A DNA stretch of 64,000 bases from an uncultured Spirochaetota bacterium (GTDB lineage Bacteria; Spirochaetota; Spirochaetia; SZUA-6; Fen-1364), in the NCBI GenBank assembly GCA_963845325.1, contig CAWJRT010000016.1, positions 39,780-103,779 on the forward strand, read 5' to 3'. A model generated the notes under the pieces. It was not told the origin of the DNA. It saw only the letters and a list, made by a program, of their open reading frames with translations, and made no database searches. Below are positions 2,558 to 28,924 of the stretch, piece by piece; position 1 is the first letter of the stretch; every line of letters starts with the position of its first letter. Both the position numbers and the translations under genes were made by a program.

Positions 2558-2560
2558 GGG

Positions 2561-8363: not shown

Positions 8364-8393
8364 TTAGCAACAAAAGAACTTTCCGGAGAAAAC

Positions 8394-10966
<2,573 letters not shown>

Positions 10967-11267
10967 GAAGAAGTAGCAAGCCTCCCCACGGCGGCGGCTG
11001 CCGCCAGAGGAACCTGGAAGACCTTGTGCGGCGAGCTGCCGCCGCTTTTCAGCACGACGCTTTCGCGGGACAGGCCGAGTGCCTGCGCGAGGACCGGATG
11101 ATTTCCTCGTTCGCCTTTCCCTTTTCCGCCGGCGCCCGACGGACACCGAGAGCTCGCCCGGCCCTGACACCCAGGACGCCGTCCGCGCGCGCGTGCGCCC
11201 TGGCCTTCACGCGCAGAAGCAGAGTTGTGTCTTTCACCGCGTAGAAGGCTGCCCGGTTCCATGAGCA

Positions 11268-13527
11268 TCACCTCACCTCGAAGCGCACCCGGTCCCGTCC
11301 GGCGGGACTGGCCGCAATGATCTCGTGGGTCCCCCGGGGCAACGGTACCTGGAGGCCGGAAAGTCCCTGCCCGGGGGAGGCGCGCTTTCCATCGATGACC
11401 ACCTCCACCTCCCGCGCATCCCGAGCCGCAATGGACACGGGAATGCCCTGGGCGCCGCTCCGCAGGGTCTCGTCCCGGTACATGACCTGGTCGTTCACTG
11501 GAAAGAGAATCCGCACCGACTCGCCGCTCGCAAGAAGGCTGTTCAACAGGAGGTCTCCCCGCTGAAAGGGGTTCGCATGCCAGCCGCAGGGAGGCGGAAC
11601 TTCCGCCGCGCTCCTGAAGTACTCCGTGCGCGTCGAGTCACAGGCGGGCGTGGCCCCCAGTCCGGTAACCGTGCAGATCCGGGCGGCCGCGACGCGCGCG
11701 GGAGGCTGGAAGTCGCGCGCGGCCCGCGGCTGCGGATGCTCCTCGGAGAGCCGGGTGAGGATGTCGGAGACGATCTGCGTGGGCACGATGCTGCCCGTCT
11801 TGTTGATCACCGCCCTGCCGTCGAAGTTCCCCGCCCAGGCCCCCACGGTGAAGCGCGGCGTTGCGCCGACGCACCAGAGGTTGGTGAACTCGCTGGAGGT
11901 CCCGGATTTGAACATCGAGGGAATGCCGTCCTGAAATAGGTGCGGGTTCCGAATCCCGTGGCCCGGGCCGAGGGGTCCGAGAGGATGCTGCAGATCATCC
12001 AGGCGGAGAACGGATCGAACACCCTTCGCAGCGCCGGGCGCTGCTCCTTCGGTAAGCGCGAGGTCAGCCAGGGTGCCCCCGCGGGGGAAAACGCTGAATG
12101 CGTGGACGAGCTCCACCAGTGAGACCTCCGCGTTTCCGATCGCAGTGCCCAGGCCGAACCGCGCCGCGGCGTCCGCCGGCAGGGTGAAGCCCAGGTCGCG
12201 AAGGGTTGCCAGGAAGACCGGCAGGCCCAGGCGCGAGGCCGTGTACACGGCGGGCACGTTCAGAGAGCTGGCCAGCGCGGTGCGCAGCCGCACCACGCCG
12301 TGGCTGCGCTTGTCGAAGTTCTCGGGGCTGTAGGATTCCTCGTCGGCCGGCCCGAAAACGACCGGCACGTCCGGCAGAAGCGTTGCGGCGGTCCAGCCCT
12401 TCTCGATTGCGCGCGCGTACAGAAACGGCTTCAGCGTCGAAGCGCTCTGACGGCGGATGAGCGCCCCGTCGATCTGGCCCGAATGAGCCGCGTCGTTGAA
12501 ATCGCGGGAGCCGACCCACCCGATGACCGCCCCCGTTGAATTGTCAATGGCTACCACGGCCGCATTGGTGACGCGCGCTTCAGAATAGCGGGAGAGGATG
12601 AAGCGGACGCGCGCCTCGATGTCGTGGTTGAGCCCGAGGTCCAGCGTCGTGCGAACGACGCCTCCGGATGAGCGCAGGCGCCCCGCCGCGAGCTCGGCCT
12701 GGACGTAGCGGACAAAATGCGGGGCATCGCCCGCGGGACGCGCCCGTGCGCGCGCGCCATTGACCGCCGCCTCGATTTCGCCCGGGCCTATCCCGAGGCG
12801 CTTCCGCTCATCCAGGTCGCGCGCCGCTGCGATGAGCCGCGGTGCATGATCAAAGGGATCATAGACCGTGGGGTTGCGCGGAATGATGGCCAGCACGAGG
12901 AGCTGCGCGCGGGTCAGGTGAGAAAGATCCGTGGCGAAATAGGTCCATGCCGCCGCCCCCGACGCCCAGCGTGTTCCTGCCGAAGGGCACGTGGTCCAGG
13001 TACTCGGTGAGGATCTGGTCTTTTGTCAGCCGGGACTCGATCCGCAGTGCCCACCATGCCTCGACGATCTTTCCGGCCATGCTTCGGGCGCGGGGCTCGA
13101 CCAGCCGGGCAAGCTGCATCGTGATGGTGGAAGCACCTGACCGCGCGCCGGGTGACAGGGCCCTGTCCGCGATGGCGCGCAGCGTTGCCAGCGGGTCGAC
13201 ACCGGGGTGGCGGCGGAACCGGGAATCCTCGAGGGTGACGAACATCTGCGCGCATTCCGCGGGAATTCCCGAGCCTCCCTCGCGGAGCTGGAACGCACCG
13301 CCGGGGCCCGACATGGCGGAAAGAAAGGTCCCCGAGCTGTCCGTGATGCGTGATCCGGAAGGGTCTGCCAGGAAAGCATCGAGCTCCGGCATCGGCATGA
13401 GCAAGAGCACAGCTGTCAGGAGCGCGGGGATGCCGATGAGCAGCAAAGCCCGGATGGCAGCGAGCCGCGCGCCCGGAAGCGCGGGGCCCGGCTTCAGTCC
13501 GGCGTCCGTGCCTTCGAGCGCAGCCAC
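11268..13527 (-). CDS. pbpC: Penicillin-binding protein 1C (transglycosylase + transpeptidase + C-terminal PBP1C domain), with one frameshift at ~12900.
   Basis: ORF 12859..13527 carries the GT51 motifs (FRRHPGVDP...GASTITMQLARL). ORF 11268..12896 carries the transpeptidase motifs (STLKPF, KSGTS) and a BiPBP_C-like tail. Confidence 0.85.
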
Positions 13528-14416
13528 GCGAAAAGCCTTTCGCCGTAGAGCATGAACGCCAGCCCGACTATTGCAATGGGCACGCCAAGGGCGAGGAACG
13601 GAGTCGGTGTCTCGGCTGCCAGCAGAAGGCCGAGCACCAGCGCAATGATCGGGTTCACCAGGGCGTAGCTCACCAGCCGCTCGGCCGGCTCCACCCCACG
13701 AGATAGGTGTACGCGCTGAAAGCGGCGGATCCGATCACGCCGAGGTACAGCACGCCCACGATGGACAGCAGGGACGCCGAGGCCAGCACGGGACCCGGCG
13801 CAGGTCCGATGACGGCGCACACCAGGAGGCTCACGATGCCCACAAACAGCATCTGTATCCCGCTGTTCAGGGTGGTGTCCCCGCTCACCGGGAATCGGTG
13901 GCCAAGGCTCGTTGCCAGCCCCCAGGACAGGACCCCTCCCGCGCCGATGAGCACGGAGGCGTTCAAAGTCGTCCGCAGCGAGTGGCCGTTGTAGAGAAGC
14001 ACGGCCACCCCGGCCAGCCCGAAGACAACTCCCAGGATCCGCGCGGCGGTGAGGCTCTTGCGCAGCAGCAGGGAATCGAAAACCGCCACCACGAGGGGTG
14101 TGGACGATGCGAGCAGCGCGGCCAGGTAGCTGTCGACATTGCGTTCGGCGATGGTTATCCCGCCGTTGCCCAGGAGAATGAGCAGGATTCCGAGGACGAT
14201 GGAAGAGAGGACGCTGCGCAGGGAAGGAAGCTTCTTCAGGCTCCCCCTGCCGGCAGCCACGGCCAGGAGGAGACCGCCGCCGATCAGCCAGCGGAAGGCC
14301 ATGACCCACATCGGCGGGATTGTCAGCACGGACTGGCGGATGAAGAAATACGTGGATCCCCAGACGACGTAGATGGTGGCGTAGCTTGCGATGACAAGAC
14401 CCGGCTGGCGCTTCAT
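13497..14416 (-). CDS. EamA/DMT-family transporter, with one frameshift at ~13680.
   Basis: It has ten predicted TM helices and two EamA-like halves. The parts are in ORFs 13670..14608 (start MKRQPGLVIAS) and 13494..14309. Confidence 0.7.
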
Positions 14417-14495
14417 CGGTGAATCACCGACCCACTTTCTACCATTTTTCCTCCGCCCATTGACATCCCCTCCCCCTCCCCGTACCTTGGGGGGC

Positions 14496-16283
14496 ATGAC
14501 GGGCAGCGAGCTGAGGCGCAAATACATCGATTTCTTCAAGGGAAAAGGGCATGCCGAGATCTCCGGCAAGTCCCTGATCCCCGAGAACGATCCGACGGTT
14601 CTCTTCACGACAGCGGGAATGCATCCCCTCGTCCCCTATATCCTCGGCGAGCCGCACCCGGCGGGAAGGCGGCTGGTGGACTGCCAGAAATGCGTCCGTA
14701 CGGACGACATCGACGAGGTGGGCGACACGGCGCACCTCACGTTTTTCGAGATGCTCGGCAACTGGTCGCTCGGAGACTATTTCAAGGAAGACGCCATTGC
14801 CTTCAGCTACGAGTTTCTCACGTCTCCGAGGTGGCTCGGTTTTTCCCCGGATCTCCTCTCCGTCACCGTGTTCGCCGGGGACGCCGAAGTCCCGCCCGAC
14901 AACGAGGCGGCGGCGGCCTGGAAATCAGTGGGCATCCCGGACAGCCGCATTCACTTCCTCGGCCGCAAGGACAACTGGTGGGGACCCGCCGGGCAGACCG
15001 GGCCGTGCGGTCCGGACACCGAAATGTTCATCGACACCCGTCTTCCCCCCTGCGGGCCTGACTGCAAGCCCGGATGCCACTGCGGGAAGTACATCGAGGT
15101 GTGGAACGACGTGTTCATGCAGTACAACAAGACGGCGGAGGGAAGCTACCTGCCGCTTGCCCAGAAGACGGTGGACACGGGCATGGGCGTGGACAGGACG
15201 CTGGCGATGTTCCAGGGGAAGAAAAGCGTTTTCGAGACGGAGCTGTTCTGGCCCGTCATCGAGCGGCTCCAGGAAATTTCCGGCAGGCGCTACTCCGCGG
15301 AGCCGGCCGTCGACATCTCGTTCAGGATCATCTCCGATCACCTTCGCTCCTCGGTGTTCATCATCGGTGATGACCGAGGGGTGAAGCCATCCAACCTCGG
15401 CCAGGGTTATATCCTGCGCCGGCTCATTCGACGGGCGATCCGGCATGCGCGGAAGATCGGCCTGGACGGCGACTTCCTCGGGCCGCTGTCGGGGAAGGTC
15501 GTCGCCATCTACGAGGACTTCTACCCGGAGCTCCGAGAGCGCGCGGAAATGATTGCCACGGAGCTTACGCAGGAAGAGGCACGGTTCTCCGACACTCTCC
15601 AGAAAGGCGAGCACGAGTTCGAGAAACTGCTTCCCAACCTCATGAAGAATCCCCAGAAAGTGATCCCGGGCCGCGTTGCATTCCGCTTGTACGACACCTA
15701 CGGCTTTCCCATCGAGATCACGGAAGAGCTTGCCCGCGAGCACGGCATGAGCGTGGACAGGAAAGGTTTCGAGGAGGCCTTCGAGAAGCACCAGGAGCTG
15801 TCCAAGGCGGGAGCCGAGAAGACTTTCAAGGGGGGGCTGGCGGACCATTCCGAAATGACCACGCGGCTGCACACGGCAACGCACCTCCTTCACCAGGCGC
15901 TTCGCACCGTCCTCGGCCCCCATGTCGCCCAGAAGGGCTCAAACATCACCGTGGAACGGCTGCGGTTCGATTTCGTGCATCCGAAGCCGATGTCGGAAGA
16001 GGAAGTCCGGAAAGTCGAGGCCATCGTCAACGAGCAGATCGGGCGGAACCTTCCCGTGAGCATGGAAATCCTGACCCTCGAGCAGGCGCGGGCCGCGGGC
16101 GCCATTGCCCTGTTCGGCGAGAAGTACCAGGAAAAAGTGAAGGTCTACACCATCGGAGATTTTTCGAAGGAAGTCTGCGGGGGCCCCCACGTGGAGAACA
16201 CCGGGGTGCTGGGAAAGTTCGTCATCCAGAAGGAGCAATCGTCTTCTGCGGGCGTGAGGCGGATCAGGGCGGTGCTGGAATAG
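14496..16283 (+). CDS. alaS: Alanine--tRNA ligase, short form. It ends just after the editing domain and lacks the C-Ala domain.
   Basis: It has the class II catalytic core (FTTAGMHPLVPY, QKCVRTDDIDEVGDTAHLTFFEMLGNWS), editing-domain HxxxH (HTATHLLH) and CGGPHV motifs, and terminates at GVRRIRAVLE*. The length is 595 aa against ~870 aa for canonical AlaRS. Confidence 0.9.
   Translation: MTGSELRRKYIDFFKGKGHAEISGKSLIPENDPTVLFTTAGMHPLVPYILGEPHPAGRRLVDCQKCVRTDDIDEVGDTAHLTFFEMLGNWSLGDYFKEDAIAFSYEFLTSPRWLGFSPDLLSVTVFAGDAEVPPDNEAAAAWKSVGIPDSRIHFLGRKDNWWGPAGQTGPCGPDTEMFIDTRLPPCGPDCKPGCHCGKYIEVWNDVFMQYNKTAEGSYLPLAQKTVDTGMGVDRTLAMFQGKKSVFETELFWPVIERLQEISGRRYSAEPAVDISFRIISDHLRSSVFIIGDDRGVKPSNLGQGYILRRLIRRAIRHARKIGLDGDFLGPLSGKVVAIYEDFYPELRERAEMIATELTQEEARFSDTLQKGEHEFEKLLPNLMKNPQKVIPGRVAFRLYDTYGFPIEITEELAREHGMSVDRKGFEEAFEKHQELSKAGAEKTFKGGLADHSEMTTRLHTATHLLHQALRTVLGPHVAQKGSNITVERLRFDFVHPKPMSEEEVRKVEAIVNEQIGRNLPVSMEILTLEQARAAGAIALFGEKYQEKVKVYTIGDFSKEVCGGPHVENTGVLGKFVIQKEQSSSAGVRRIRAVLE
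16218..16283. repeat. Direct repeat DR-L. This is the functional 3' end of alaS and the left boundary of the defence island.
   Basis: ttcgtcatccagaaggagcaatcgtcttctgcgggcgtgaggcggatcagggcggtgctggaatag aligns at ~80% identity, with an exact 23-mer ggcgtgaggcggatcagggcggt, to positions 24863-24930. Confidence 0.8.
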
Positions 16284-16325
16284 ATTGCGGTCGCCTTAGT
16301 CAGGCTGGAGCTTGACCGGGGATAC

Positions 16326-18443
16326 TTGTATAGTAGCTCTGTGAATCACAGTGAGGTAGTAAGTTTCATCTGGGGAGTCGCGGACCTCATCCGCGACACC
16401 TTCAAACGCGGCAAATACCAGGACGTGATTCTTCCCCTCACCGTGCTTCGCCGGCTTGACTGCGTGCTTGCGCCGACAAAGCAGAAGGTGCTCGCCAGAC
16501 AGGCGGAGCTGAAAAACAAGAAGCTCGAGAACCTCGACGGGATTCTCCGGACGGTGTCAGGCTTCGCCTTCTACAACACCTCCCGCTACGACTTCGAGAG
16601 ACTTCTTCAAGACGCTCAGCATCTTGCGGCCAATATTCGAAACAACATCGCCGGCTTCAGCCAGAACATGCGCGAGGTGTTGGAGAAGTTCGACTTCGAC
16701 AACACTATCAGCAAGCTCGATGAGGCGGGACTTCTTTTCCAGGTGCTGGAGAGATTCAAGAACGTCGATCTGCATCCTGATAAGATCGACAACCCGACCA
16801 TGGGCACAATCTTCGAAGAGCTCATCCGCAAGTTCAATGAGGCTCTGAATGAAAATCCCGGTGAGCACTTTACCCCCCGCGACGTCGTTCACCTGATGGT
16901 TGACCTCATGATGGCAGGAGACGAAAAGGAGATTCGCGCGAAGAAAGCCATCCGCTCCGTATACGACCCGTGTTGTGGATCGGGTGGCATGCTCATGATC
17001 GCCAAAGAACACGTGACCATCGGGCTTCGGAAAAACGGCGGCCTCCTTCGTCCCCCGATCAACAGCAGTGCAGAGATCTACCTCTTCGGCCAGGAGGTGA
17101 ACCCGGAGACCTGGGCTGTTTCGAAGTCAGACCTTTTCATGAAGGACCCGACGGGGCGTGATGCTGACAACATCATGTATGGCAGCACACTTTCGAACGA
17201 TCGCCACTCCGGACACCAGTTCGACTACCTGATCGCCAATCCGCCCTACGGCAAGGATTGGAAGCGTGACGAGGAGGCAGTCCGCGCCGAGCACGAACGC
17301 GGCGCCTCCGGGCGTTTCGGGCCGGGACTGCCGCGGATCAGCGACGGTCAGCTTCTCTTTCTCCTTCACATGCTCTCCCATGCAAAGGAACCAAAAGAAG
17401 GCGGCTCCCGAATTGCGATAATCATGAACGGGTCTCCGCTCTTTACGGGGGACGCCGGAAGCGGTGAAAGCGAAATCCGAAGGTTCATTCTGGAGAACGA
17501 TCTTCTGGAAGCAATGATCGCGCTTCCTGAGCAGCTCTTTTATAACACCGGCATCGCCACCTACATCTGGGTGGTCACGAACCGGAAGGCGGCGAAGCGC
17601 CGTGGCATGGTTCAGCTCATTGATGCCTCGTCCTTCTGGGTACAGATGCGAAAGACCCTGGGGGACAAACGCCGCGAAATTCCTTTGGAGCGTGCCCAGG
17701 ACATCCTGAGAATACTTGCCGACTTCAAAGACGGAGATACACGGGAAGATCTTGTCGTCAGCCGGATATTCCCCACCACGCACTTCGGTTTTAGAAAGAT
17801 AACGGTCGAGCGGCCGTTAAGGCTGAGCTTCCAGGCAACCCCGGAGCGGATCGCCCGGCTTGAGGATGAGAAGGCATTCATCGCACTTGCGCAAACGAAA
17901 AAGAAAGGCGCGGCAGGCGTAAAAGAACAGATGGACGGGCGTGCCGAACAGGAAGCAGTCCGCGCGCTTGTCAATTCGATGCCGAGCACACTCTTCAGGG
18001 ACCGCAGTGAGCTCGAACGCGCGCTCGACGACGTGGCCGGCACGCAAGGGATGAAGCCGGCGGCGCCGCTGAAGAAGGCCATCCTTTCCGCGCTCTCCGA
18101 ACGTGATGAGACGGCCGCCATTTGCCTCGACAAGGAGGGCCATCCCGAACCCGACCCGGAGTTGAGGGACACGGAGAGCGTGCCGCTCTCAGAGAGCGTC
18201 GAGGCTTTCTTTGAGCGCGAGGTGACGCCGCACGTACCGGATGCGTGGATCGACAAGAACAAGCGCGATCCGAAGGATGGCGAAGTCGGTCTTGTCGGCT
18301 ACGAGATCAACTTCAACCGCTACTTCTATCGCTATACCCCGCCTCGTCCGCTGGAGGACATCGAGGCCGATATTCGAGGCATCGAGACGGACATTGTGAG
18401 AATGTTGGCCGAGGTCACGGGAAGCGCGACTCGATCAAAATAA
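16326..18443 (+). CDS. hsdM: Type I restriction-modification system N6-adenine DNA methyltransferase subunit HsdM (long form, ~705 aa).
   Basis: It has the HsdM N-terminal domain (VSFIWGVADLIRDTFKRGKYQDVILPLTVLRRLD), the AdoMet motif DPCCGSGGML and the catalytic NPPY (LIANPPYG). The start is a TTG/GTG near 16326. Confidence 0.9.
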   Translation: MYSSSVNHSEVVSFIWGVADLIRDTFKRGKYQDVILPLTVLRRLDCVLAPTKQKVLARQAELKNKKLENLDGILRTVSGFAFYNTSRYDFERLLQDAQHLAANIRNNIAGFSQNMREVLEKFDFDNTISKLDEAGLLFQVLERFKNVDLHPDKIDNPTMGTIFEELIRKFNEALNENPGEHFTPRDVVHLMVDLMMAGDEKEIRAKKAIRSVYDPCCGSGGMLMIAKEHVTIGLRKNGGLLRPPINSSAEIYLFGQEVNPETWAVSKSDLFMKDPTGRDADNIMYGSTLSNDRHSGHQFDYLIANPPYGKDWKRDEEAVRAEHERGASGRFGPGLPRISDGQLLFLLHMLSHAKEPKEGGSRIAIIMNGSPLFTGDAGSGESEIRRFILENDLLEAMIALPEQLFYNTGIATYIWVVTNRKAAKRRGMVQLIDASSFWVQMRKTLGDKRREIPLERAQDILRILADFKDGDTREDLVVSRIFPTTHFGFRKITVERPLRLSFQATPERIARLEDEKAFIALAQTKKKGAAGVKEQMDGRAEQEAVRALVNSMPSTLFRDRSELERALDDVAGTQGMKPAAPLKKAILSALSERDETAAICLDKEGHPEPDPELRDTESVPLSESVEAFFEREVTPHVPDAWIDKNKRDPKDGEVGLVGYEINFNRYFYRYTPPRPLEDIEADIRGIETDIVRMLAEVTGSATRSK

Positions 18444-18453
18444 ATGTCGGCAC

Positions 18454-18482
18454 TTGACAGCAAATGTCAACTTTTATTATAA
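18454..18482 (+). promoter_or_regulatory. Near-consensus sigma70 promoter with an overlapping palindromic operator upstream of abiEi.
   Basis: TTGACA (18454-18459), a 17-nt spacer, then TATAAT (18477-18482). The -35 hexamer belongs to the perfect palindrome TTGACAgcaaaTGTCAA (18454-18470), and aaatgtc is directly repeated at 18442 and 18462. Confidence 0.6.
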
Positions 18483-18502
18483 TCCCGCCGTGAATCCTCA
18501 GG

Positions 18503-19096
18503 ATGACTCCGGCCAAACTGAAGGCGGCCGGAATCGGGGCCTTCTTCCGACCACGTGACCTCGAACCGCTGGAAATAACGTTCGCTGAGCTCCAGCGTCT
18601 TGTTGCAAGCGGCATAGTGGAGAAACTGGGGCGTGGCAGGTACCGGCTTGCGCAGATCGCGCCCAACGAGTTCGAGAGCGTCGCCATGGTGTGTTCGACC
18701 GTCCCTCGCGGCATCGTCTGTCTCCTCTCGGCTCTTCGCATGCATGAAATAGGAACACAATCGCCCCATGAGGTGTGGCTGGCACTCGACCGTAAGGCTC
18801 GAAAGCCAACTCGCTTGCCGGCACAGGTGCGCATCGTCCGCTTTTCCGGACCAATGCTGAGCTATGGCATCCATACCAGGGATATCCTCGGTGTCCCGGT
18901 CCGGCTCACTTCTCCCGCGCGAACGGTGGTCGATTGTTTCCGGTATCGATCGAAGCTCGGAATTGACATTGCGATAGAAGCCCTTCGGGATGCCGTGCGT
19001 TCGCACAAAGCGACCGTCGACGAAATCGTTCGCGCGGCTGAGGTCTGCCGCGCCGGAACGGTTCTCCGCGCATACTTGGAAGCTTTGGAAACATGA
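18503..19096 (+). CDS. abiEi: AbiEi-family antitoxin / transcriptional regulator (type IV TA).
   Basis: A 197-aa protein with an N-terminal wHTH-like region and AbiEi_4-like architecture. It overlaps the downstream nucleotidyltransferase gene by 4 nt. Confidence 0.65.
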   Translation: MTPAKLKAAGIGAFFRPRDLEPLEITFAELQRLVASGIVEKLGRGRYRLAQIAPNEFESVAMVCSTVPRGIVCLLSALRMHEIGTQSPHEVWLALDRKARKPTRLPAQVRIVRFSGPMLSYGIHTRDILGVPVRLTSPARTVVDCFRYRSKLGIDIAIEALRDAVRSHKATVDEIVRAAEVCRAGTVLRAYLEALET

Positions 19097-20040
19097 AGAA
19101 GCGCCCGCCCGTGAATGTCGCGGCATCGGTGAGAGCCCGATTGCAGCAGTACGGGATGAACAAAGGTGAAGACTTCCTGTTCGTGCTTCAGCGCTACGCC
19201 TCCGAACGCTTCCTCTACCGGCTTGGCCGGTCAGCGCACCGAAACAGCTATGTCCTCAAAGGAGCCATGCTCTTCGCGCTTTGGGGCAGCTCCTTCTATC
19301 GTCCGACACGCGATCTCGATTTCACCGGCTACGGCAGCGCCGAGACGGGCGACGTCCTCGCGGAGGTGCGCGACGTGTGCGGCATTCGGGTGCAAGACGA
19401 TGGCCTGTTATTTGACCAAACAAGCCTGACCGCTGAGCCCATTCGCGATGACGCCGAATACCGGGGCCTTCGAATAAAACTACAGGCGACCCTAGGCAGA
19501 GCCCGCATTCAGATGCAGATAGATATCGGATTCGGCAACGCAATCGAACCGCCCGCCATTGATGTCGACTATCCGGCGCTGATTGGCTCGCCCGCCCCGT
19601 CCGTTCGAGCCTATCCTCAGGAAGCTGTTGTGGCAGAGAAGCTTCAAGCGATGGTCGCGCTCGGCGAGCGTAATAGTCGCTACAAGGACTTCTACGACCT
19701 CTGGATCCTGGCAGGACAATTCCCCTTTAATGGAGCACGCCTCAGCGGTGCAATAAATGCCACGTTCACCCGCCGAAGAACCGCGATTTCTGCTGCGCTT
19801 CCTGCCGGCCTCACTCCGCGGTTCTACGTTGATGACGCCCGTGCAGGGCAGTGGCGCGCATACCTGACGCGCAGCAAGGTGCCCGGTGCCCCGCCTGATT
19901 TCGCGGTTGTGGGGGAGTTGCTGCAGTCATTTATAGGCTCAGTGTGGCGGGCGCTGGCGGCGGGCGGCCCGTTCGCAGGCTCGTGGCCACCAGGCGGACC
20001 GTGGTCGCCAGGTCTGATGCACCAGGAGGCGTCGGAGTGA
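19093..20040 (+). CDS. abiEii: AbiEii-family toxin (DUF1814 nucleotidyltransferase).
   Basis: It has the NTase-fold motifs (LKGAMLFALWG...RPTRDLDF; IQMQIDIGFGN) typical of AbiEii/DUF1814. It follows abiEi with an ATGA overlap. Confidence 0.7.
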   Translation: MKKRPPVNVAASVRARLQQYGMNKGEDFLFVLQRYASERFLYRLGRSAHRNSYVLKGAMLFALWGSSFYRPTRDLDFTGYGSAETGDVLAEVRDVCGIRVQDDGLLFDQTSLTAEPIRDDAEYRGLRIKLQATLGRARIQMQIDIGFGNAIEPPAIDVDYPALIGSPAPSVRAYPQEAVVAEKLQAMVALGERNSRYKDFYDLWILAGQFPFNGARLSGAINATFTRRRTAISAALPAGLTPRFYVDDARAGQWRAYLTRSKVPGAPPDFAVVGELLQSFIGSVWRALAAGGPFAGSWPPGGPWSPGLMHQEASE

Positions 20041-21437
20041 GCGAAGTGGGAAGCCCGGGCCTTGCTGGAGCAAAGCGCTACAAGCCGTATCCGGCGTACA
20101 AAGACTCAGGCGTGGAGTGGCTGGGGGAGATACCGGAGCACTGGGAAATGAAGAGGCTGAAAACACGGATCGTCCAATCCGGCAGGTGCACCGCCAGCAA
20201 GGAGAAATTGACTCACTGAAAGGCGAAGTACTTCCGTGCGTATGGCGCAAGGATATGGAGGCACTTGATCTCGATACCAAGGACAAAATAGAGTCAGGAC
20301 AGCTTCGCGACGAGTGCGACCAACCTTGTTTCCGTTGAAGATGATGTTATTGTCGCTAAGATCAGGCATTCTGGTTCATGGCAATCCCGGTTGCAATTGC
20401 GATGGTCTCGAAGTGGGCAGCTGCGAACCATGATCTTGCAGACGTTGATAACGCGAGCACATGGAGCTTGTCCCTGAGTCCTCTTTCTGCTGATCGCATG
20501 AGCGACACGCTGTTCGCTATGGAGAAGGAAGGCGTATGACGTTGCGGGCCTAGAAATGAGTCCAGATTGATTGCAAACACTCGCATGCACCAATACCGCA
20601 GCCACCGGAGCAGCGCGCGATCGTCGCTTTCCTCGATCGAGAGACGGCGAAGATCAGATGCGTTAGTAGCAGCAAACGAAACAGCTGATCGAACTGTTGC
20701 AGGAGAAGCGCGCTCGCCCAAATCACTCAAGCTGTGACCAAGGGTCTCGATCCGGATGCTCCCATGAAGGATTCCGGCGTCGAGTGGCTGGCTGACGATA
20801 CCGGAAAAATGGGAGAGTCAAGCGGTCTTAAGTATCTTTCCACTTTCGTCACCAGCGGCTCGAGAGGATGGGCAGATTACTATTCGGATGATGGCTCAAT
20901 ATTCTTCGCATTGGCAACCTGACAACAGATTCGATAGAAATAGATCTTGCAGACGTCCAGCATGTACACGCTCCTCGCGGCGCCGGAAAACGAAAGAATC
21001 CGCGTCCGAGCGTGTGATATTGTCATTTCCATCACAGCGTTGATAGGAGCAGTTGGTGTGGTGCCCGACGAGCATCGAGGAAGCGTTTCGTGAATCAGCA
21101 TCTGGCACTCGTGCGGCCTGTCACGCGAGCGCGTGAACCCGCGTTGGCTAGGCTATTCCATTCTGTCTGGATTTGGACACGCGCAACTGCACGAGGAGTT
21201 ATATGGCGGAACGAAGGACGGATTCGGACTCGAGGATATCCGAGCACTGACTGATCTTCGTGCCTCCGTCTATCAGTGCAAGAGCAAATTGTCACGAACT
21301 GGACGAAATGAACAGACAACACGACGCTCTTATCGCGGAAGGTCAAAGACGCCATCGAGCGCCTCAAAGAGCTTCGCACCGCCCTCATCTCCGCGGCAGT
21401 CACAGGCAAGATCGACGTGCGGGAGGAGGTTCCATGA
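20036..21437 (+). pseudogene. hsdS: Type I R-M specificity subunit HsdS. It is full length (~1.4 kb) but broken by several frameshifts and in-frame stops in the AT-richer target-recognition domains.
   Basis: TRD1 starts at [23 protein letters not shown] (20036-20219). The central conserved region PPEQRAIVAFLDRETAKI...ELLQEKRA(ALITQAVT)[17 protein letters not shown] is at 20590-20800. The C-terminal conserved LKELRTALISAAVTGKIDVREEV ends at 21437 and overlaps the hsdR ATG. No single frame is open. Confidence 0.6.
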
Positions 21438-24400
21438 GCCCCGAAATCTCCGAGCGCAGCTTCGAAGGGGATATCGAGCGCAGCCTGCTCCGGGCAGGGG
21501 CCTACCGAAGGCATTCCCCAGAAGACTATGACCGCGAGCTCTGTCTCATTCCGGCTGACCTTGTGGATTTCGTGGTGGCAACACAACCGAAGGAGTGGCA
21601 AAAACTCACGCAGCACCACGGCGACAACGTGCGTGAACGCTTTCTCAAGCGCGTCGCGTCTGAGATCGAAAGGCGCGGGGCACTGGATGTGCTTCGAAGC
21701 GGGATCAAGGATTCGGGCTGCAAGTTCAAGCTCGCCTACTTCCCGCCCGCAAGCGGGCTCAATGATGAGATCCGGCGACTTCATGCGGCGAACCTGTTTG
21801 CCGTTGCGCGGCAGGTTCGCTACAGCATCAAGAATGAGAACAGCCTGGACCTTGTGCTGTTTTTGAATGGTATCCCTCTTTTTACGGCGGAGCTGAAAAG
21901 CCCGCTTACGGGCCAGACTGTCGAGGAAGCAATTCGACAGTACAAGACCGATCGCGACACTCGGGAACCGCTCTTTGCCTATGGAAGGTGTCTCGCGCAT
22001 TTCGCCATCGATCCCGACCTGGTATACGTCGCCACGGAGCTCGCGGGAGAGAAGACGCGCTTCCTTCCCTTCAACAAGGGAAAGTTCGGTGGTGCAGGCA
22101 ATCCACCGGTATCTCCAACGCAGGAGGGATACTCAACGAGCTATCTCTGGGAGGACACGTGGTCCCGCGACAGTGTCCTCGACCTGGTGCGTCAGTTCGT
22201 CCATGAGGTGGAAGAAGAAGACGAGAAAGGTCGAAAGACCGGCAGGCGCTTCACGATCTTCCCTCGCTATCAGCAGCTCGATTGCGTGCGAAGGCTCGTC
22301 GCGCATGCGCGTGAAGCAGGCCCAGGGCACCGCTACCTGATCCAGCATTCGGCAGGAAGCGGCAAGAGCTTCACTATCGCTTGGCTTGCTCATCGGTTGG
22401 CCACCCTTCACGATTCCTCGGATCGGAGGGTTTTCGACTCAATCGTGGTCGTTACCGATCGACGCGTTCTCGATCGGCAGCTCCAGACGACAATGCGACA
22501 GTTCGAGCAGACCCTTGGCGTAGTGGAAAACATCGACACGACTTCACGCCAGCTCAAGGACGCCCTTGAAGGTGGAAAGACGATCATTGTTACAACGCTT
22601 CAGAAGTTTCCGGTCATCGTCGATGAGATCGGCGCGCTGCAGGGCAAACGCTTCGCGGTGATCGTCGATGAGGCGCATTCCTCTCAATCGGGAGAAAGCA
22701 CAAAGAGCCTCAAGGCCGTCCTCGCCTCCAAGTCCCTTGAGCAGGCGGAGGCCGAAGAGGCCAGCGCCCAGACGCCAGAAGAGGAGCTTGAAAACGCCGT
22801 CTTGTCAGAAATAGAAAAGCGTGGGCAGCTTCCTAATCTTTCCACTTTCGCGTTTACCGCCACGCCCAAGTCCAAGACGCTCGAGCTCTTCGGGACAAAA
22901 CGCGCGGATGGAAAATTCGAACCTTTCCACCTCTACACCATGCGTCAGGCCATCGAGGAGGGGTTCATCCTCGACGTGCTCGAAAATTACAGCACGTACA
23001 AATCGTACTGGCGACTGCTGAAAAGAATCGAAGCCGACCCGCGCTACGATCGAAAGAAAGCCGAGTACCTGCTCAAATCCTTCGTCGACCTCCATCCGCA
23101 CGCGATCGGGGAGAAAGTACGGATCTGCATGGAACATTTTGCTGCGCAGGCGCAGAATGCAATCGACGGCAAGGCAAAGGCCATGATCGTGACCCGCTCA
23201 CGGCTGCACGCGGTGCGCTTCAAGCTTGCCGCCGACAAGTACATTTCAGAGCACAAACTGCCCTTCAAGGCCCTCGTGGCATTCTCTGGCACCGTCAAGG
23301 ATGGCGGGGAGTCGTACACGGAATCCGGTATGAACGGCTTCCCTGCGGCACAAACGGCCAGGTCTTTCGATCGGCCGGAGTACAGGTTTCTCATAGTGGC
23401 CAACAAGTTTCAGACCGGCTTTGACCAGCCGCTTCTTCTCGCCATGTACGTTGACAAGAAACTCGGGGGCGTCAACGCGGTGCAGACCCTTTCCCGGCTC
23501 AATCGCACGCATTCGGGCAAGAAGGGTACGATAGTCATCGATTTCGCCAATGAAGCCGATCAGATCAAAATAGCCTTCGAACCATATTTCGAGACCACGC
23601 TCCTGTCCGAGGCGACTGATCCGAATCTGCTCTATGAGATTCAAACGCGGCTCGCAGCTTTCCCGGTTTATACGCCTGCCGACATTCACAACTTTGCTAT
23701 CCTCTACTTCAATGCCGCGACGAAACAGGACCGATTGTATTCCGCACTGGCCCCCGCGGTCACTCGCTTCCAGGCGCTATCCCAGGCTGAGCGGGAGGAA
23801 TTCCGCGGGCAGCTGACCGACTATGTGCGGCTCTATGCATTTCTGGCGCAGGTGCTCCCGTTTGCCGATTCGGACCTGGAGAAGTTCTATGCTTTTGCGC
23901 GGTACCTGCGGCGGCTGCTTCCTCCCGATCGCGCCGAGCTTCCGCGGGAGGTGCAGCAGAACATCGACATGGAGTCCTATCGCATCCAACGAACCGGCGG
24001 TGGAAAGATCGCACTGGAGCGGAGGCCAGGCATCCTGGAGCCAGTTGGGACCAAGGACAACCATGGGCCATGGACAGAGGAACTGGAGATGCTTTCGCGT
24101 ATCATTGCGATGCTGAATGAAAGATTCGGGCTCAACCTCGGCCCCGAGCATCGCCTGACCCTGGGTCAGATGATGGAAAAGCTCGACGGTGACGCAGCGC
24201 TTGATGCCGCCGCACGGGTCAACACCCGTGAGAACGTCCGTCTGACGTTCGATCAAAAAGTTGAGCGTGTGATCCAGGAGATCGTCGATTCCAACTTCGA
24301 GCTGTACAAGCGTATCACCGACGACCGCGCTTTTGGAGAAGCAATCAAGAACTTCCTTTTCGATCAGTACCTGCGCGCGCATCGAAACGCGGAAGAGCTA

Positions 24401-24871
24401 ATCAAGCGCGGTGAATCGAAGACGCTCGAGCTGAAGTCGACGCTTCGATGGAACGTGAAAGAGGACCGCCAGGACGACAAGGGGGTCACTCACGCCGCCT
24501 TGAAAAGCATCGCCGCCTTCCTCAACACGGAAGGAGGCGACTTGCTGGTCGGCGTTGCCAACGACGGCGCCATCGTCGGGATTGAGCGCGACCGGCTGGA
24601 AAACGACGACAAGTTCATGCTTCATCTCGCGCAGGTTGTCCGCAACGGCCTTGGCGACCGCGCAGGGACGTGCATCGACCCCAAGACGCAGATTGTGCAA
24701 GGAAAAACTGTCTGCGTGGTGAGCTGCCAACGAAGTCCCGAGCCGGTGTTCCTGAAATGGAAAGGGATGGAATCAAACCCAGACGGAGACTTCTTTGTGA
24801 GAAGCGGTCCAGGGACGGTGAAGCTCTCGCCTGAAAGCGCCAAGGAATACATAAAGACCCGCTTCAAATAA
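21434..24871 (+). CDS. hsdR: Type I restriction enzyme R subunit HsdR with a C-terminal AlbA_2 / Schlafen-like (divergent AAA) DNA-binding domain.
   Basis: It has the HsdR N-terminal nuclease region, the SF2 helicase motifs (LIQHSAGSGKSF Walker A, VIVDEAHSSQSG DEAH box) and HsdR C-domains. The last ~150 aa (KSTLRWNV...LNTEGGDLLVGVANDGAIVGIERD...DKFMLHLAQVV) match the AlbA_2/PF04326 pattern. A strong SD (GGAGGAGG) precedes the ATG. Confidence 0.9.
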   Translation: MSPEISERSFEGDIERSLLRAGAYRRHSPEDYDRELCLIPADLVDFVVATQPKEWQKLTQHHGDNVRERFLKRVASEIERRGALDVLRSGIKDSGCKFKLAYFPPASGLNDEIRRLHAANLFAVARQVRYSIKNENSLDLVLFLNGIPLFTAELKSPLTGQTVEEAIRQYKTDRDTREPLFAYGRCLAHFAIDPDLVYVATELAGEKTRFLPFNKGKFGGAGNPPVSPTQEGYSTSYLWEDTWSRDSVLDLVRQFVHEVEEEDEKGRKTGRRFTIFPRYQQLDCVRRLVAHAREAGPGHRYLIQHSAGSGKSFTIAWLAHRLATLHDSSDRRVFDSIVVVTDRRVLDRQLQTTMRQFEQTLGVVENIDTTSRQLKDALEGGKTIIVTTLQKFPVIVDEIGALQGKRFAVIVDEAHSSQSGESTKSLKAVLASKSLEQAEAEEASAQTPEEELENAVLSEIEKRGQLPNLSTFAFTATPKSKTLELFGTKRADGKFEPFHLYTMRQAIEEGFILDVLENYSTYKSYWRLLKRIEADPRYDRKKAEYLLKSFVDLHPHAIGEKVRICMEHFAAQAQNAIDGKAKAMIVTRSRLHAVRFKLAADKYISEHKLPFKALVAFSGTVKDGGESYTESGMNGFPAAQTARSFDRPEYRFLIVANKFQTGFDQPLLLAMYVDKKLGGVNAVQTLSRLNRTHSGKKGTIVIDFANEADQIKIAFEPYFETTLLSEATDPNLLYEIQTRLAAFPVYTPADIHNFAILYFNAATKQDRLYSALAPAVTRFQALSQAEREEFRGQLTDYVRLYAFLAQVLPFADSDLEKFYAFARYLRRLLPPDRAELPREVQQNIDMESYRIQRTGGGKIALERRPGILEPVGTKDNHGPWTEELEMLSRIIAMLNERFGLNLGPEHRLTLGQMMEKLDGDAALDAAARVNTRENVRLTFDQKVERVIQEIVDSNFELYKRITDDRAFGEAIKNFLFDQYLRAHRNAEELIKRGESKTLELKSTLRWNVKEDRQDDKGVTHAALKSIAAFLNTEGGDLLVGVANDGAIVGIERDRLENDDKFMLHLAQVVRNGLGDRAGTCIDPKTQIVQGKTVCVVSCQRSPEPVFLKWKGMESNPDGDFFVRSGPGTVKLSPESAKEYIKTRFK

Positions 24872-24930
24872 TCGAGAAGGAGCGGTCGTCTTCCGCCGGC
24901 GTGAGGCGGATCAGGGCGGTATTGGAGTAG
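24863..24930. repeat. Direct repeat DR-R. This is a displaced, degenerate copy of the alaS 3' end (it encodes ...EKERSSSAGVRRIRAVLE*) and it contains the hsdR stop codon.
   Basis: ttcaaataatcgagaaggagcggtcgtcttccgccggcgtgaggcggatcagggcggtattggagtag. The identical core is 24898-24920. It has two extra nt relative to DR-L, so it is not in the alaS frame. Confidence 0.8.
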
Positions 24931-25005
24931 CTCCCCAGGGCTTCACGGCGCCGGCTGCGCGGTCGCCCGGCCCTGGGGCCCCTTTCGCGCCGCCTTCGGC
25001 CGTCG

Positions 25006-26106
25006 CTACGGCTTCTGCAGCTTTTCCAGCAGCTCGCCGATCCCGAGGTTCTTGATCCCCATCCGCTGGGCGCGGGTAAGCACTTCCAGCGCCTTGTCCC
25101 TCTTGTCAAGCGCGAGCCAGCTCTGGGCCACCTCGATGTAGAGCCGGGGGTTCTTCGCGTCGTTCACCATGAGCCCCGAAAGACTCTCGATTGCCTCCAG
25201 GTAGTTGCCCTTTTCCTTGTTGATGAGCGCGAGACCCAGCACGGCGTAGCTGTCGAACTCGATGTTCAGTGCCTTGCTGTAATAGTCACGGGCGGTATCG
25301 AGCTGGTTCATCGCCCGATAGGAATCCCCGATCCGCGTGAGGATCACCTTGTTATCTGGGTCAGCGTCCAGGATCTTCTGCCAGTAGAAAAGGGACTCCT
25401 GGGGATCGTTCATGCCCCGGTAGCAGTCCGCAAGGCCGAAGAGCGCGTAGAAATTGTTCGGCTGGATGTCCAGGGCCTTCTTGAAATACGGGATGCCCTT
25501 CTCGTAGGTCTTCAGCTTGCGGTAGCAGTTTCCGATGGACGTGAGCACCCAGATGTTCTTCGGATCCTTTTCGTGCATGCGTTCCCAGTAGGTGAGCGCT
25601 TCACGGTACTCCTTGAGATCGAAGTGGAGGTAGCCCAGCCCGGTCAGGGCGTAGGGGTTGCCGGGATCGATCTCCAGGATTTTATGGTAGATTTCCTTCG
25701 ACCTGCTGAAATCCAGGACCTTGCGATAGGCATCTGCGATCCTCGTCAGGACCGTCACGTCGCTGTCCCCCTGGGCAAGGTACTTTTCCCATATCTCGAT
25801 TGCCCGGTGAAACTGTTTCAGCGATCGATAGCTGTCGGCCAGCCCGACAAGGGCGTACTTGTTGCCCACGTGGTAGCCGAGGCATTCCTCGTAGTAACGG
25901 ATGGCTTCGTGGTAGGACTTGCGCTTGCGCGCCGCGTCTCCCATCCCGACAAGGGCGTAGTTGTTCTGCGGCTCGACCTCCAGGATGCGGCGGAAGTTCT
26001 CCTCCGCCTCTGCAATGTGGTCTTCCTTGAGGAGCTGGTAGCCCCGCTTGGAAAGCTCTGAAATCGAAACCGGAACGGGTCCCGGTACTTTTTCTTCACT
26101 GCTCAT
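25006..26106 (-). CDS. TPR-repeat protein.
   Basis: 366 aa made of consecutive 34-aa TPR units (W-LG-Y-A-F-A-P signature, e.g. YALVGLADSYRSLKQFHRAIEIWEKYL). Confidence 0.8.
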   Translation of the reverse strand: MSSEEKVPGPVPVSISELSKRGYQLLKEDHIAEAEENFRRILEVEPQNNYALVGMGDAARKRKSYHEAIRYYEECLGYHVGNKYALVGLADSYRSLKQFHRAIEIWEKYLAQGDSDVTVLTRIADAYRKVLDFSRSKEIYHKILEIDPGNPYALTGLGYLHFDLKEYREALTYWERMHEKDPKNIWVLTSIGNCYRKLKTYEKGIPYFKKALDIQPNNFYALFGLADCYRGMNDPQESLFYWQKILDADPDNKVILTRIGDSYRAMNQLDTARDYYSKALNIEFDSYAVLGLALINKEKGNYLEAIESLSGLMVNDAKNPRLYIEVAQSWLALDKRDKALEVLTRAQRMGIKNLGIGELLEKLQKP

Positions 26107-26449
26107 GCAATTCCGTTTTCCCTTCTGCCAGCCAGTGTTTCACTACCTGCGCGATCTTCTCTACGACATCGGCAGTCCTGTCCGGAGCAGGCGCGACCCA
26201 GTACAATTTCAGCGCTTCGAGGGGCTTCCCCTCCTTGAGGTACCGGTCTCCGACGCGAATGAGACCATCAGAGTACTTTGTTGTGACAAAAATTCGCTGG
26301 GCGAGAGCCAACTCCCCCCTGTTGTACAGCTCGTTACCCTTCCGGATGAGTGCAGCCCTCTTCTCACGGGGGAGAGGCGCGGCGTGTTCCACACCAATTT
26401 TCAAAAAACCGCCGGAAGGCAACTTTTTCAGGATGTCATGTGCGCTCAT
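26096..26449 (-). CDS. Hypothetical protein, probably co-transcribed with the TPR gene.
   Basis: ~118-aa ORF with an 11-nt overlap with the TPR gene start. No recognisable domain. Confidence 0.4.
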   Translation of the reverse strand: MSAHDILKKLPSGGFLKIGVEHAAPLPREKRAALIRKGNELYNRGELALAQRIFVTTKYSDGLIRVGDRYLKEGKPLEALKLYWVAPAPDRTADVVEKIAQVVKHWLAEGKTELHEQ

Positions 26450-26526
26450 CCCGACCTTCCAGATCAAGATACTTGATCCGATGCAGAGAGTAAATACCTC
26501 CCGAATTGCAGGGCTTTGACAGTGGC

Positions 26527-27108
26527 CTATCCAATCCGGCCTTTCGATGACATCTCCCTGCCGTCCGGGGAGTATGCCTGCCGCAGCGCCCTGCCCAGCG
26601 CCTTGAACGCAGACTCCGCCATGTGGTGGCTGTTCCCGCCCCGCCGAACATCAACGTGAAGGCTGATCCTGGCCTGCGAGGAGAAGCCCGTGAAGAACTC
26701 CCGCAACAGCGAGACGTCGAACGTGCCGGCGTAGGGCTGCGGAAAATCGGCGTTCAGGGAGAGGGTCGGCCTCCCGCAGACATCTATCGTCACCTCCGAC
26801 AGCGCCTCGTCCATCGGGACAACCGCGTGACCGAAGCGGATGACCGACCCTTTCTCGAGAATCGCCGAAAACGCCTGCCCGAGGACGATTCCGACGTCCT
26901 CCACGAGATGGTGAGCATCCACGTCGATGTCTCCCGTGCCGTTCACGGTGAGAAAGAAACGGCCGTGGAAGGCCATGCTCGTCAGCATGTGATCCAGGAA
27001 AGGAAGCCCCGTGCGGACAGCCGGCTGGGCATCACTTTCCGGGTCAAGCGTGACGGAAATGTCCGTCTCGCGCGTTTTCCTCTGTATGGTCACTCTCCGG
27101 GACGTCAC
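26527..27108 (-). CDS. hisB: Imidazoleglycerol-phosphate dehydratase.
   Basis: Full-length IGPD with the conserved motifs RKTRETDISV, HHLVEDVGIVLG and GGNSHHMAESAFKALGRALR. Confidence 0.9.
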   Translation of the reverse strand: MTSRRVTIQRKTRETDISVTLDPESDAQPAVRTGLPFLDHMLTSMAFHGRFFLTVNGTGDIDVDAHHLVEDVGIVLGQAFSAILEKGSVIRFGHAVVPMDEALSEVTIDVCGRPTLSLNADFPQPYAGTFDVSLLREFFTGFSSQARISLHVDVRRGGNSHHMAESAFKALGRALRQAYSPDGREMSSKGRIG

Positions 27109-27172
27109 AAAGCTATTGTATGCGCGGGACGGGGAAAATCAAGGAGAGGGTTGCCGCGCGCAGGGGAGAGCT

Positions 27173-28924
27173 CTACTCCCTCTCGTGGAGGAGAACCTTC
27201 AGCTGCTTGATCTCGTTGACCAGCTTGTCGCGGCTCATTTCCCGGAAGCGCCGCGGCACCATCTCGCGGCTCGTGCACTCGAGGACGGCCACGAGGTTCT
27301 GCAGCTCGATTTCGTGCGGGTACGCGGGGGGCATGAAGTCCTGGATGGTTTCCTCCAGGTCGCCCCTGGTGACAAAGACGTGGTTGTTCATGGCGGAGAG
27401 GAACTTGGCGCGGATGAGCACCGATTCGAGGTCCGCGCCGGAGAACTCGTACTTGTACCGGCGGAACAGCTCCGCGACGTTCGTTTTCTGCATGCGCAGC
27501 GAGAGCTTCTTCACGAGCGTGGAGAACAGGTCCTCCTTTTCATCGATGGTCTCGGGGTAAAACAGGGCCAAGTGCTCCTCGGCCCTTCCCTGCCGCTTGA
27601 GGTCGATCGGGAGGAGGTCGGGCCGGCAGGTGATGAGGAACCAGATGATCTTGCCCCGGTACTCGGTGTTTCCCATGAATGATGCGATCTGGGCAAAGAT
27701 GCGGTTGCTCGTCCCCGAGTCACCGTCCTGGTTTCTGTCCCCCAGAAAGGCGTCTGCCTCGTCGATCATCACACCGACGGGCGCCATGGCCTTGAGGATA
27801 TTCAGGATCTTTTCGAGGTTGCTCTCGGTGACTCCCTGCCACTTGGAACGGAAGTTGCGGAACTTCACAATGGGGATGCCGATCTCCCCCGTGAATGCGG
27901 TCACCATGAAGCTCTTCCCCGTGCCGACCGGACCGGCAATCAGGTAGCCCATTGGCAGGACGTCGAACCGGCTGTCGCGAATTGCCCGGGCGGCGCTGCG
28001 GAAGCGCTTCTTGACGAAATCGTGGCCCGAAACGGCGGAAAGGTCATGCTCGCTTTCGATGAACTCCAGGAGACCGACTGCCTCCGCCTCGATGATCTGC
28101 TTCTTCTTTTCCTTGAGGTACGAGAGGTTGATCTCCCGGTCTTCCTGGAAGCTCTCAGCCGAGAGCTGGTTGAGGTTCACCAGGTTGAGACCGCTGGTGA
28201 TCCCGGCGAACTCGGGAATGGTGAGGGAACCTTCGAGGAGCAGCTTGCCGCTCCTGTCCAGGTAGTGCAGGAAGCTCTCGCGCACCTTCTCATCCGGGAT
28301 GGGGATATTCACCTTGATGGCGCTGGGTGAGCGCACGATGGTGGGGTTGAGATCAGAGAGGTTCTCCGTCAGCAGGATGATCGAGACGTCGCCCTGCGTG
28401 AAAATGGGGTCGTTCGCCCACCGATTGAGAGTGACGAGGCAGTACCGGTCCTCGTCGGTATAGCGCGAGATGTCGGTATTGGGGACAACGGTTTCGGAGT
28501 AGTCGATGATGAGGACGATCCTCTTGCTGAGCGTGATGTTGGCGTAGAAATACCGCTCCAGCTGCGTGAGCGCGCGAACCGGGTTGCGCGAGAGCAGGCT
28601 CCCGGGCGTCGCCTTGGGCGACAACTGCTTCATCTTTGCCAGGTAGTCGTGCTTCATCTCGGGTTTGCAGAAGCTCACCCCCGAGGAACGGTCGTAGAAC
28701 ACGATGATGTCACGGTTGCCGAACAGCACCTCTGCGACATAATCCTGGATCTTGGCGAAGTTGAACTCCCCCTCCTTCATCTTGTGAGGGAGAAAATCGC
28801 GGATGTTGCCGGAGAGCAGGTAGAGGTTCGCGGTTTTCGAGCAGTACTTGTACGAAAGCTCCTGCGCCCAGGCAGGAAGCACCTTGATAAAGGGCAAATT
28901 CTTGACAATGAGCTGTTCGGCCAT
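27173..28924 (-). CDS. AAA+ ATPase with a ~330-aa N-terminal domain of unknown function.
   Basis: The C-terminal AAA module has Walker A GPVGTGKS, Walker B VGVMIDEAD and a sensor-2/arginine-finger region (FSGADLESV). The N-terminal two thirds has no recognisable motif. Confidence 0.75.
   Translation of the reverse strand: MAEQLIVKNLPFIKVLPAWAQELSYKYCSKTANLYLLSGNIRDFLPHKMKEGEFNFAKIQDYVAEVLFGNRDIIVFYDRSSGVSFCKPEMKHDYLAKMKQLSPKATPGSLLSRNPVRALTQLERYFYANITLSKRIVLIIDYSETVVPNTDISRYTDEDRYCLVTLNRWANDPIFTQGDVSIILLTENLSDLNPTIVRSPSAIKVNIPIPDEKVRESFLHYLDRSGKLLLEGSLTIPEFAGITSGLNLVNLNQLSAESFQEDREINLSYLKEKKKQIIEAEAVGLLEFIESEHDLSAVSGHDFVKKRFRSAARAIRDSRFDVLPMGYLIAGPVGTGKSFMVTAFTGEIGIPIVKFRNFRSKWQGVTESNLEKILNILKAMAPVGVMIDEADAFLGDRNQDGDSGTSNRIFAQIASFMGNTEYRGKIIWFLITCRPDLLPIDLKRQGRAEEHLALFYPETIDEKEDLFSTLVKKLSLRMQKTNVAELFRRYKYEFSGADLESVLIRAKFLSAMNNHVFVTRGDLEETIQDFMPPAYPHEIELQNLVAVLECTSREMVPRRFREMSRDKLVNEIKQLKVLLHERE

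Follow-up and report, generated by a model that had tools for sequence, protein, structure and literature searches.

A type I restriction-modification operon with an AbiE pair at the duplicated 3' end of alaS in an uncultured spirochaete

Nobusato and co-workers are said to have described, in 2000, restriction-modification (R-M) gene complexes whose insertion was accompanied by a long target duplication. Islands and cis-mobilizable elements (CIMEs) at the 3' ends of protein genes form another group, in which the ICESt1/ICESt3 family integrates at the 3' end of fda in Streptococcus thermophilus. Accessory defence genes may also lie inside a type I R-M operon, as prrC does in the EcoprrI hsd locus. 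Little is understood so far of how defence systems without mobility genes pass from one genome to another. Here, we analyzed a stretch of 64,000 nt (hereafter the window) from an uncultured Spirochaetota bacterium (assembly GCA_963845325.1, contig CAWJRT010000016.1, positions 39,780 to 103,779), in which an 8.6-kb operon, predicted to encode a type I R-M system with an AbiE toxin-antitoxin pair, is inserted at the 3' end of alaS, the gene for alanyl-tRNA synthetase (AlaRS), and is bounded by two copies of the alaS tail. Loci fetched for comparison are denoted by L numbers.

For R-M units of this kind, Furuta, Abe and Kobayashi (2010; PMC2853133) used a set of criteria: the unit is flanked by repeats longer than 30 bp, the insert is short, mobility genes are lacking, and the empty site holds a single copy of the repeat. 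The 30-bp cut-off lies beyond typical transposase or integrase cores. Among the cases is a type I system of Haemophilus influenzae with a 46-bp duplication that overlaps the 3' end of a gene (PMC2853133). At the present locus, the flanking repeat is 60 nt long, the duplication of 56-60 nt exceeds 30 bp, the insert measures 8.6 kb and no mobility genes were found in it or among 30 further long open reading frames scanned in the window; furthermore, a single copy in the relative L084, which is another species with about 89% nucleotide (nt) identity, aligns to both copies of the window. The best reading of the sequence is that the locus represents an 'insertion with long target duplication' in the R-M sense, and it would then be another case of a known class.

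Insertion and target duplication at the alaS end

The alaS gene of the window (14496-16283, + strand, ATG at 14496) is intact and encodes a short AlaRS of 595 amino acids (aa) with the Pfam domains tRNA-synt_2c (1.8e-142) and tRNA_SAD. Its final 19 codons plus the stop codon are present twice as a direct repeat of 60 nt. The proximal copy (16224-16283, + strand) is the working tail of alaS and encodes IQKEQSSSAGVRRIRAVLE followed by the stop; the distal copy (24871-24930, + strand) is a displaced, non-coding relic of the tail, which would read IEKERSSSAGVRRIRAVLE and a stop. The two are identical at 52 of 60 positions (87%) without gaps, their start-to-start spacing is 8647 nt, and five of the eight differences are synonymous in the alaS frame. 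The similarity extends rightwards as far as the alaS stop codon and leftwards as far as the stop codon of hsdR, the last gene of the insert, or a point 1-4 nt past it. The first 4 nt of the distal copy (A-TCG; compare TAA-TCG in L081 and L163, which carry the same cassette elsewhere) may be the cassette's own end, in which case an apparent Q-to-E change in the relic would be explained and the duplication would be 56 nt long.

A sequence-only reading of the window had placed this repeat at 16218-16283 and 24863-24930. The repeat itself is real, and only its limits were drawn a few bases too wide; the exact 23-mer that it was said to share (GGCGTGAGGCGGATCAGGGCGGT) is found within both copies, at 16251-16273 and 24898-24920. 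The alignment that had been proposed as a check gave a similarity beyond chance, with a local score of 80 against a shuffled mean of about 19-21 and a shuffled maximum of 26-31, and the 23-mer had no match in 100 dinucleotide-preserving shuffles. Even with up to 3 mismatches tolerated, no third occurrence of the 23-mer was detected in the window, so that the repeat is present in two copies here; each relative locus contains one.

A metagenome scan with the protein encoded on the far side of the insert, which contains tetratricopeptide repeats (TPR), yielded about 40 closer relatives (TPR protein 94-99% identical in aa sequence), and the AlaRS of the window shares 94% aa identity with those of L084 and L083. 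As the earlier reading had anticipated, relatives with an uninterrupted alaS beside the TPR gene do exist: the two genes adjoin in about 20 of them (including L084, L086, L089 and L098), and neither hsd genes nor a second alaS tail were detected among the approximately 40 close relatives. On either side of the insert, L084 aligns collinearly with the window (88-89% nt identity): positions 11248-16282 of the window correspond to 2-5033 of the L084 reverse complement and positions 24868-30000 to 4972-10021, and the single tail of L084 (4972-5033 in the same orientation) matches both 16221-16282 and 24868-24930. Directly after its alaS stop codon, L083 has CTCCCCAGGGCTTCACGGCGCC, 22 nt that are identical to the sequence after the distal copy. 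It follows from the comparison with L083 and L084 that the distal copy stands at the original alaS end, and that 8.6 kb was inserted and the target duplicated. The alaS/TPR junction of L084 is the empty site, and the block is, as originally proposed, an insertion at the alaS 3' end bounded by a duplicated alaS tail.

A separate scan of species-representative genomes (GTDB) with AlaRS had given best matches of 70-72% aa identity (L001 and L002), in which alaS is followed by a convergent rlmN-like gene and then by the TPR and AAA genes, with no hsd genes. These two were rejected as an empty site, being too distant (<=72% aa); they show the ancient synteny alaS, rlmN, TPR.

The TPR-repeat gene of the window (25006-26106, - strand; Pfam TPR families) is the native neighbour and is convergent with alaS. 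The native alaS/TPR spacer (24931-25005) contains a GC-rich hairpin (fold -45.2 kcal/mol, z = -1.95) that is terminator-like for convergent genes. In this clade, alaS/TPR spacers consist of variable counts of GC-rich hairpin units (GCGCGCCTTCGGCGCGC-like), the spacer measuring 75 nt in the window and about 210 nt in L083. The convergent junction as such is a variable spot in the lineage. It is occupied by an rlmN-like radical-SAM gene in distant relatives (L001, L002, L110, L111, L116, L117 and L124), by a 499-aa gene for an apparent glycoside hydrolase (GH51-like by eye) in L088 and L115, by a 278-aa gene resembling a short-chain dehydrogenase (by eye) in L104, and by a 141-aa open reading frame (ORF) resembling a fragment of an SGNH-type hydrolase (by eye) in L085. 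L094 and L097 have an apparent sugar-transport operon (by eye) at the TPR junction and no alaS nearby. rlmN is absent throughout the window, and exact-protein look-ups of its TPR protein and AlaRS found no record.

Gene content, ends and distribution of the operon

The inserted cassette (16299-24874, + strand) is one defence operon that extends from a promoter-like block to the hsdR stop codon plus TCG. Searches against Pfam and PADLOC identified hsdM, abiEi, abiEii and hsdR in it; together with hsdS these are its only genes, all on the + strand. hsdM (16341-18443, + strand) starts with GTG and encodes 700 aa with the Pfam domains HsdM_N and N6_Mtase (PADLOC MTase_I, 2.5e-270); its start and length are identical to those of the homologues in L081 and L082. 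It is followed by abiEi (18503-19096, + strand; PADLOC AbiEi, 9.3e-65; Pfam AbiEi_4), for the antitoxin or transcriptional regulator, and by abiEii (19093-20040, + strand; Pfam AbiEii, 2.4e-43; PADLOC AbiEii, 5.1e-110), for the nucleotidyltransferase toxin. Adjacent genes for a predicted winged helix-turn-helix antitoxin and a predicted nucleotidyltransferase are what characterizes AbiE type IV toxin-antitoxin systems. The frame-broken hsdS (20037-21434, + strand), recognized by peptide blocks matching HsdS of L081, L082, L163 and L165, precedes hsdR (21431-24871, + strand), which is intact and encodes 1146 aa with the domains HSDR_N, SWI2_SNF2, ResIII and T1R_D3-like and a C-terminal Schlafen/AlbA_2 domain (SLFN_AlbA_2). 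On these domain assignments, the cassette is a predicted type I R-M system with an AbiE toxin-antitoxin pair between hsdM and hsdS; HsdM and HsdR are intact, and the breaks in hsdS, which consist of indels only, may be consensus errors.

The five genes had been described as co-oriented and translationally coupled. Co-orientation is confirmed, and three start/stop overlaps are present (abiEi/abiEii at 19093-19096, 4 nt; abiEii/hsdS at 20037-20040; hsdS/hsdR at 21431-21434); hsdM is separated from abiEi by a gap of 59 nt. The operon cannot be called intact on the window sequence, in which the hsdS frame is broken. Within 20037-21434, no ORF exceeds 91 aa and at least 11 frame changes occur. Well-conserved HsdS peptide blocks, e.g., SITALIGAVGVVP and FVNQHLALV, are distributed over alternating frames, and both ends of the gene are conserved, the N-terminus at 20037 and the C-terminus (...AAVTGKIDVREEVP and the stop) at 21434, each overlapping the neighbouring gene. 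The breaks may be due to consensus indel error or to real decay, since clpB, PBP1 and polA of the window show similar frame breaks. An assignment of hsdS as a decayed pseudogene was withdrawn: the breaks fall between well-conserved blocks and resemble those of these three genes.

A clpB-like chaperone gene (8400-11100, + strand) has at least six frame changes with conserved peptide blocks in every piece, and it is either a pseudogene or, more likely, the product of consensus indel errors. The PBP1-type gene (11268-13527, - strand) is split by one additional nt relative to L084 beside a run of five C at about 12961, and another 1-nt difference occurs at 13698, at the end of an EamA gene. polA (45570-49404, - strand) is split over two overlapping ORFs; a FliS domain shares the stop-to-stop frame of the upstream one.

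At the right end of the cassette, the hsdR stop codon (24869-24871) shares a single nt with the repeat and thus does not lie inside the displaced alaS fragment, as had been suggested. The accompanying idea of an alaS origin for the final HsdR codons is not supported by the homologues: the protein ends with ...EYIKTRFK here, with ...EYIKTRFGK in L081 and with ...EYIRTRFR in L082, and the C-terminus is native because homologues share its ending. The left end of the cassette is marked by the conserved block ACTGGAGC...TTGTATAGT, some 42 nt ahead of the hsdM start. TTGTATAGT closes this block 6 nt before the hsdM GTG (16299-16343), an arrangement that would suit a leaderless transcript or one with a very short leader. 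Between the alaS stop codon and the cassette lie 15 nt, ATTGCGGTCGCCTTA (16284-16298, + strand), possibly junction filler. The blastn alignment to L081 begins at 16299 and excludes them, with GCCT at 16293-16296 perhaps matching L081 by eye; they differ from the native sequence downstream of alaS in relatives, and no match to them was found among 165 fetched loci. Consensus scans at both junctions detected no sigma-70 promoter and no intrinsic terminator.

The operon is of foreign origin and widely distributed. Its GC content of 0.56-0.60 is lower than that of the upstream side (0.62-0.68) and of the window (about 0.64), and GC at third codon positions is 0.67-0.72 in the island genes versus 0.81-0.86 in the alaS, TPR, AAA and EamA genes. 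The earlier observation that the genes are less GC-rich than their surroundings therefore holds against the window and the upstream side; the downstream flank itself reaches only 0.59-0.61. The HsdR protein is 94% identical over its full length to a homologue (P0001), further homologues share 92%, 89% and 87% identity, and thousands more share about 80%, the latter named from Alphaproteobacteria, Burkholderiales, Acidobacteriota, Planctomycetota, Gemmatimonadota and others. For homologues of this HsdR-Schlafen fusion, 8000 candidates were scored at E <= 1e-50.

The order hsdM-abiEi-abiEii-hsdS-hsdR was found in all five fetched contigs (L081, L082, L163, L164 and L165), whose surroundings are mutually unrelated. 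The nt homology with L081 (its positions 4943-13432; 82-86% identity) spans window positions 16299-24865 and is interrupted only in the hsdS target-recognition domains; identity to L082 is 81-84%. L081, L163 and L164 have the left and right ends in common with the window cassette, the right end being the hsdR stop codon and then TCG, and altogether five other contexts carry the cassette with the same ends. No flanking repeats above shuffled background, no adjoining integrase and no alaS-like sequence were detected at these five copies. As to individual genes, AbiEii of L081 is truncated to 186 aa (7736-8296), and hsdM of L165 is split into three ORFs (4745-6873). Conservation of the cassette as a unit, along with HsdR proteins of about 80% identity across many phyla, implies what would be a very wide and recent horizontal spread with no visible vehicle. 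Only relatives of <=47% identity occur in plasmid records and of <=50% in viral contigs, and literature searches for integration at the alaS end found nothing and for AbiE inside hsd operons nothing useful.

Routes of insertion

We consider it probable that this horizontally acquired 8.6-kb operon was inserted by illegitimate recombination with a long target duplication in the alaS end. A defence operon devoid of a recombinase would have entered the chromosome by non-site-specific recombination at a point inside the last 56-60 bp of alaS, and the target stretch would have been duplicated, for example when a staggered break was filled in during repair. The upstream copy preserves the full frame of the essential AlaRS. 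The event probably survived for this reason, since an insertion without duplication would cost 19 conserved residues in the tRNA_SAD region; in terms of selection, only frame-preserving events could have persisted. The downstream copy would have turned non-coding and begun to drift, and the old alaS/TPR terminator hairpin now lies 3' of hsdR. Read-through from alaS into the promoter-like block of the cassette is plausible, as the scan predicts no terminator in the interval from alaS to hsdM. Recombination over the 23-bp core would excise the cassette precisely and retain a wild-type AlaRS protein.

Polarization of the differences between the repeat copies, with L084 and L083 as outgroups, is consistent with this course. 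The working copy has three derived changes, all synonymous (CAG to CAA, TCC to TCT and GTA to GTG), and the relic has four (CAG to GAG, CAG to CGG, GCG to GCC and CTG to TTG), two of which are non-synonymous (Q to E and Q to R) at residues invariant in all relatives; the polarity of one more site is ambiguous. A single duplicated ancestral tail, with later selection on one copy only, would look like this. A change of 6-7% in the relic, compared with a divergence of 0.30 from L084 at 4-fold sites, suggests that the event took place well after the split from L084 and is not recent.

Several points weigh against illegitimate insertion as described. The 15 nt at 16284-16298 have no explanation. 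Long duplications are lacking at the five other copies of the cassette, so duplication is not a constant feature of its movement. The nearest relatives with an empty site are a different species (the 4-fold-site divergence given above) and can show the pre-insertion sequence only approximately. The 23-nt identical core between diverged arms is also the outcome of an att-type crossover, and to our knowledge the mechanism producing long target duplications has never been demonstrated experimentally.

Such a crossover belongs to a different account, which we regard as unlikely: a circular element with its own mimic of the alaS tail (attP) would have recombined within the 23-bp core, its integrase being supplied in trans or since lost, and the island would be a CIME-like remnant. 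This would account for direct repeats with a perfect core and both arms diverged, for a target at a gene 3' end with the frame restored exactly to the stop codon, for the synonymous differences (five of eight in the alaS frame), and for the 15 nt, which could be donor sequence from downstream of alaS. However, no integrase, excisionase or transposase was found in the island or among 30 further long ORFs scanned in the window, in agreement with what had been noted for integrase and excisionase, and the island has no spare space for a decayed integrase. The cassette has the same ends in five contexts without alaS-like sequence or repeats; the tail therefore does not belong to the element. No second tail, other core-bounded cargo or element at alaS was seen in the approximately 40 relatives, and the core 23-mer had no match in 2.9 million viral contigs. 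In addition, when the eight differences are placed at random, an uninterrupted identical stretch of 23 nt or more appears with p = 0.14, and the substitutions polarize equally well to a single ancestral tail. The earlier proposal of an integrative element carrying a replacement terminus is thus not upheld, both tails tracing to one ancestor, and a degraded integrase-driven island becomes less likely, given the five contexts with neither integrase nor repeats.

It is somewhat more doubtful that the operon itself is an autonomous, recombinase-free mobile unit with defined ends, which would spread between phyla and insert at breaks made by itself or by the host. If this were true, the 56-60-bp duplication would preserve a footprint of its insertion chemistry, and the cassette could be excised or amplified through the direct repeats.

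Still less probable is homology-facilitated illegitimate recombination with DNA from a related spirochaete that carried the cassette just after its own alaS. The left join would be a homologous one within alaS and the right join illegitimate, 56-60 nt before the recipient stop codon; the proximal tail would be the donor's and the distal tail the recipient's own. This would account for differences that are mostly synonymous and for 15 nt of non-native sequence behind the proximal stop codon, and the distal copy and the downstream flank clearly have a native context. On the other hand, identity of the alaS 3' region to L084, L083, L089 and L086 is undiminished (0.85-0.92 throughout), the cassette lies beside alaS in no relative, and the two non-synonymous changes sit in the supposedly native copy, so that later decay would still be needed.

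An assembly artefact, i.e., a chimeric contig or a collapsed or mis-joined repeat, is highly improbable: the frame breaks in clpB, PBP1, polA and hsdS are signs of an error-prone consensus, but they reflect single-base indels and not rearrangements, both junctions are unique sequence with each flank collinear with L084 up to the repeat, and a mis-join at the 23-mer cannot produce the alaS-like 27 nt that lie left of the core and are joined to the hsdR stop codon.

Significance and comparison with described systems

The locus provides a nucleotide-resolution footprint of one movement of a defence system without mobility genes, with an empty-site control, in a phylum and habitat (uncultured wetland and peat spirochaetes) from which no such event has been described before. 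It strengthens the case for insertion of R-M operons with long target duplications and shows that an essential gene can tolerate insertion into its own coding end if the target is duplicated; it reveals no new mechanism.

Compared with islands and CIMEs of the ICESt1/ICESt3 type, the locus has in common gene-preserving repeats at a 3' end, defence cargo and the possible loss of an integrase in remnants. Unlike them, it has no integrase or relaxase relative that we could find, the cassette ends occur elsewhere without the repeat, and no cognate full element was seen at alaS in relatives.

The closest resemblance in structure is to the cases of Furuta et al., which likewise comprise R-M genes without a linked mobility gene, a repeat longer than 30 bp, a single copy at the empty site and a foreign composition; as in the 46-bp duplication of H. 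influenzae, the repeat overlaps a gene 3' end. The present locus differs from those cases in its host, an uncultured spirochaete known from metagenomes only, in its comparator, which is another species and not another strain, and in the 15 extra nt at the left junction; its repeats (87%) are also more diverged than in most published cases. The cargo sets it apart as well, being a composite of type I R-M genes, AbiE and an HsdR-Schlafen fusion. In this respect it recalls EcoprrI with prrC, in which an accessory abortive-infection or toxin module is likewise enclosed by hsd genes and moves together with them in a single operon. At alaS, the enclosed module consists of AbiEi/AbiEii, and HsdR has an additional Schlafen/AlbA_2 domain.

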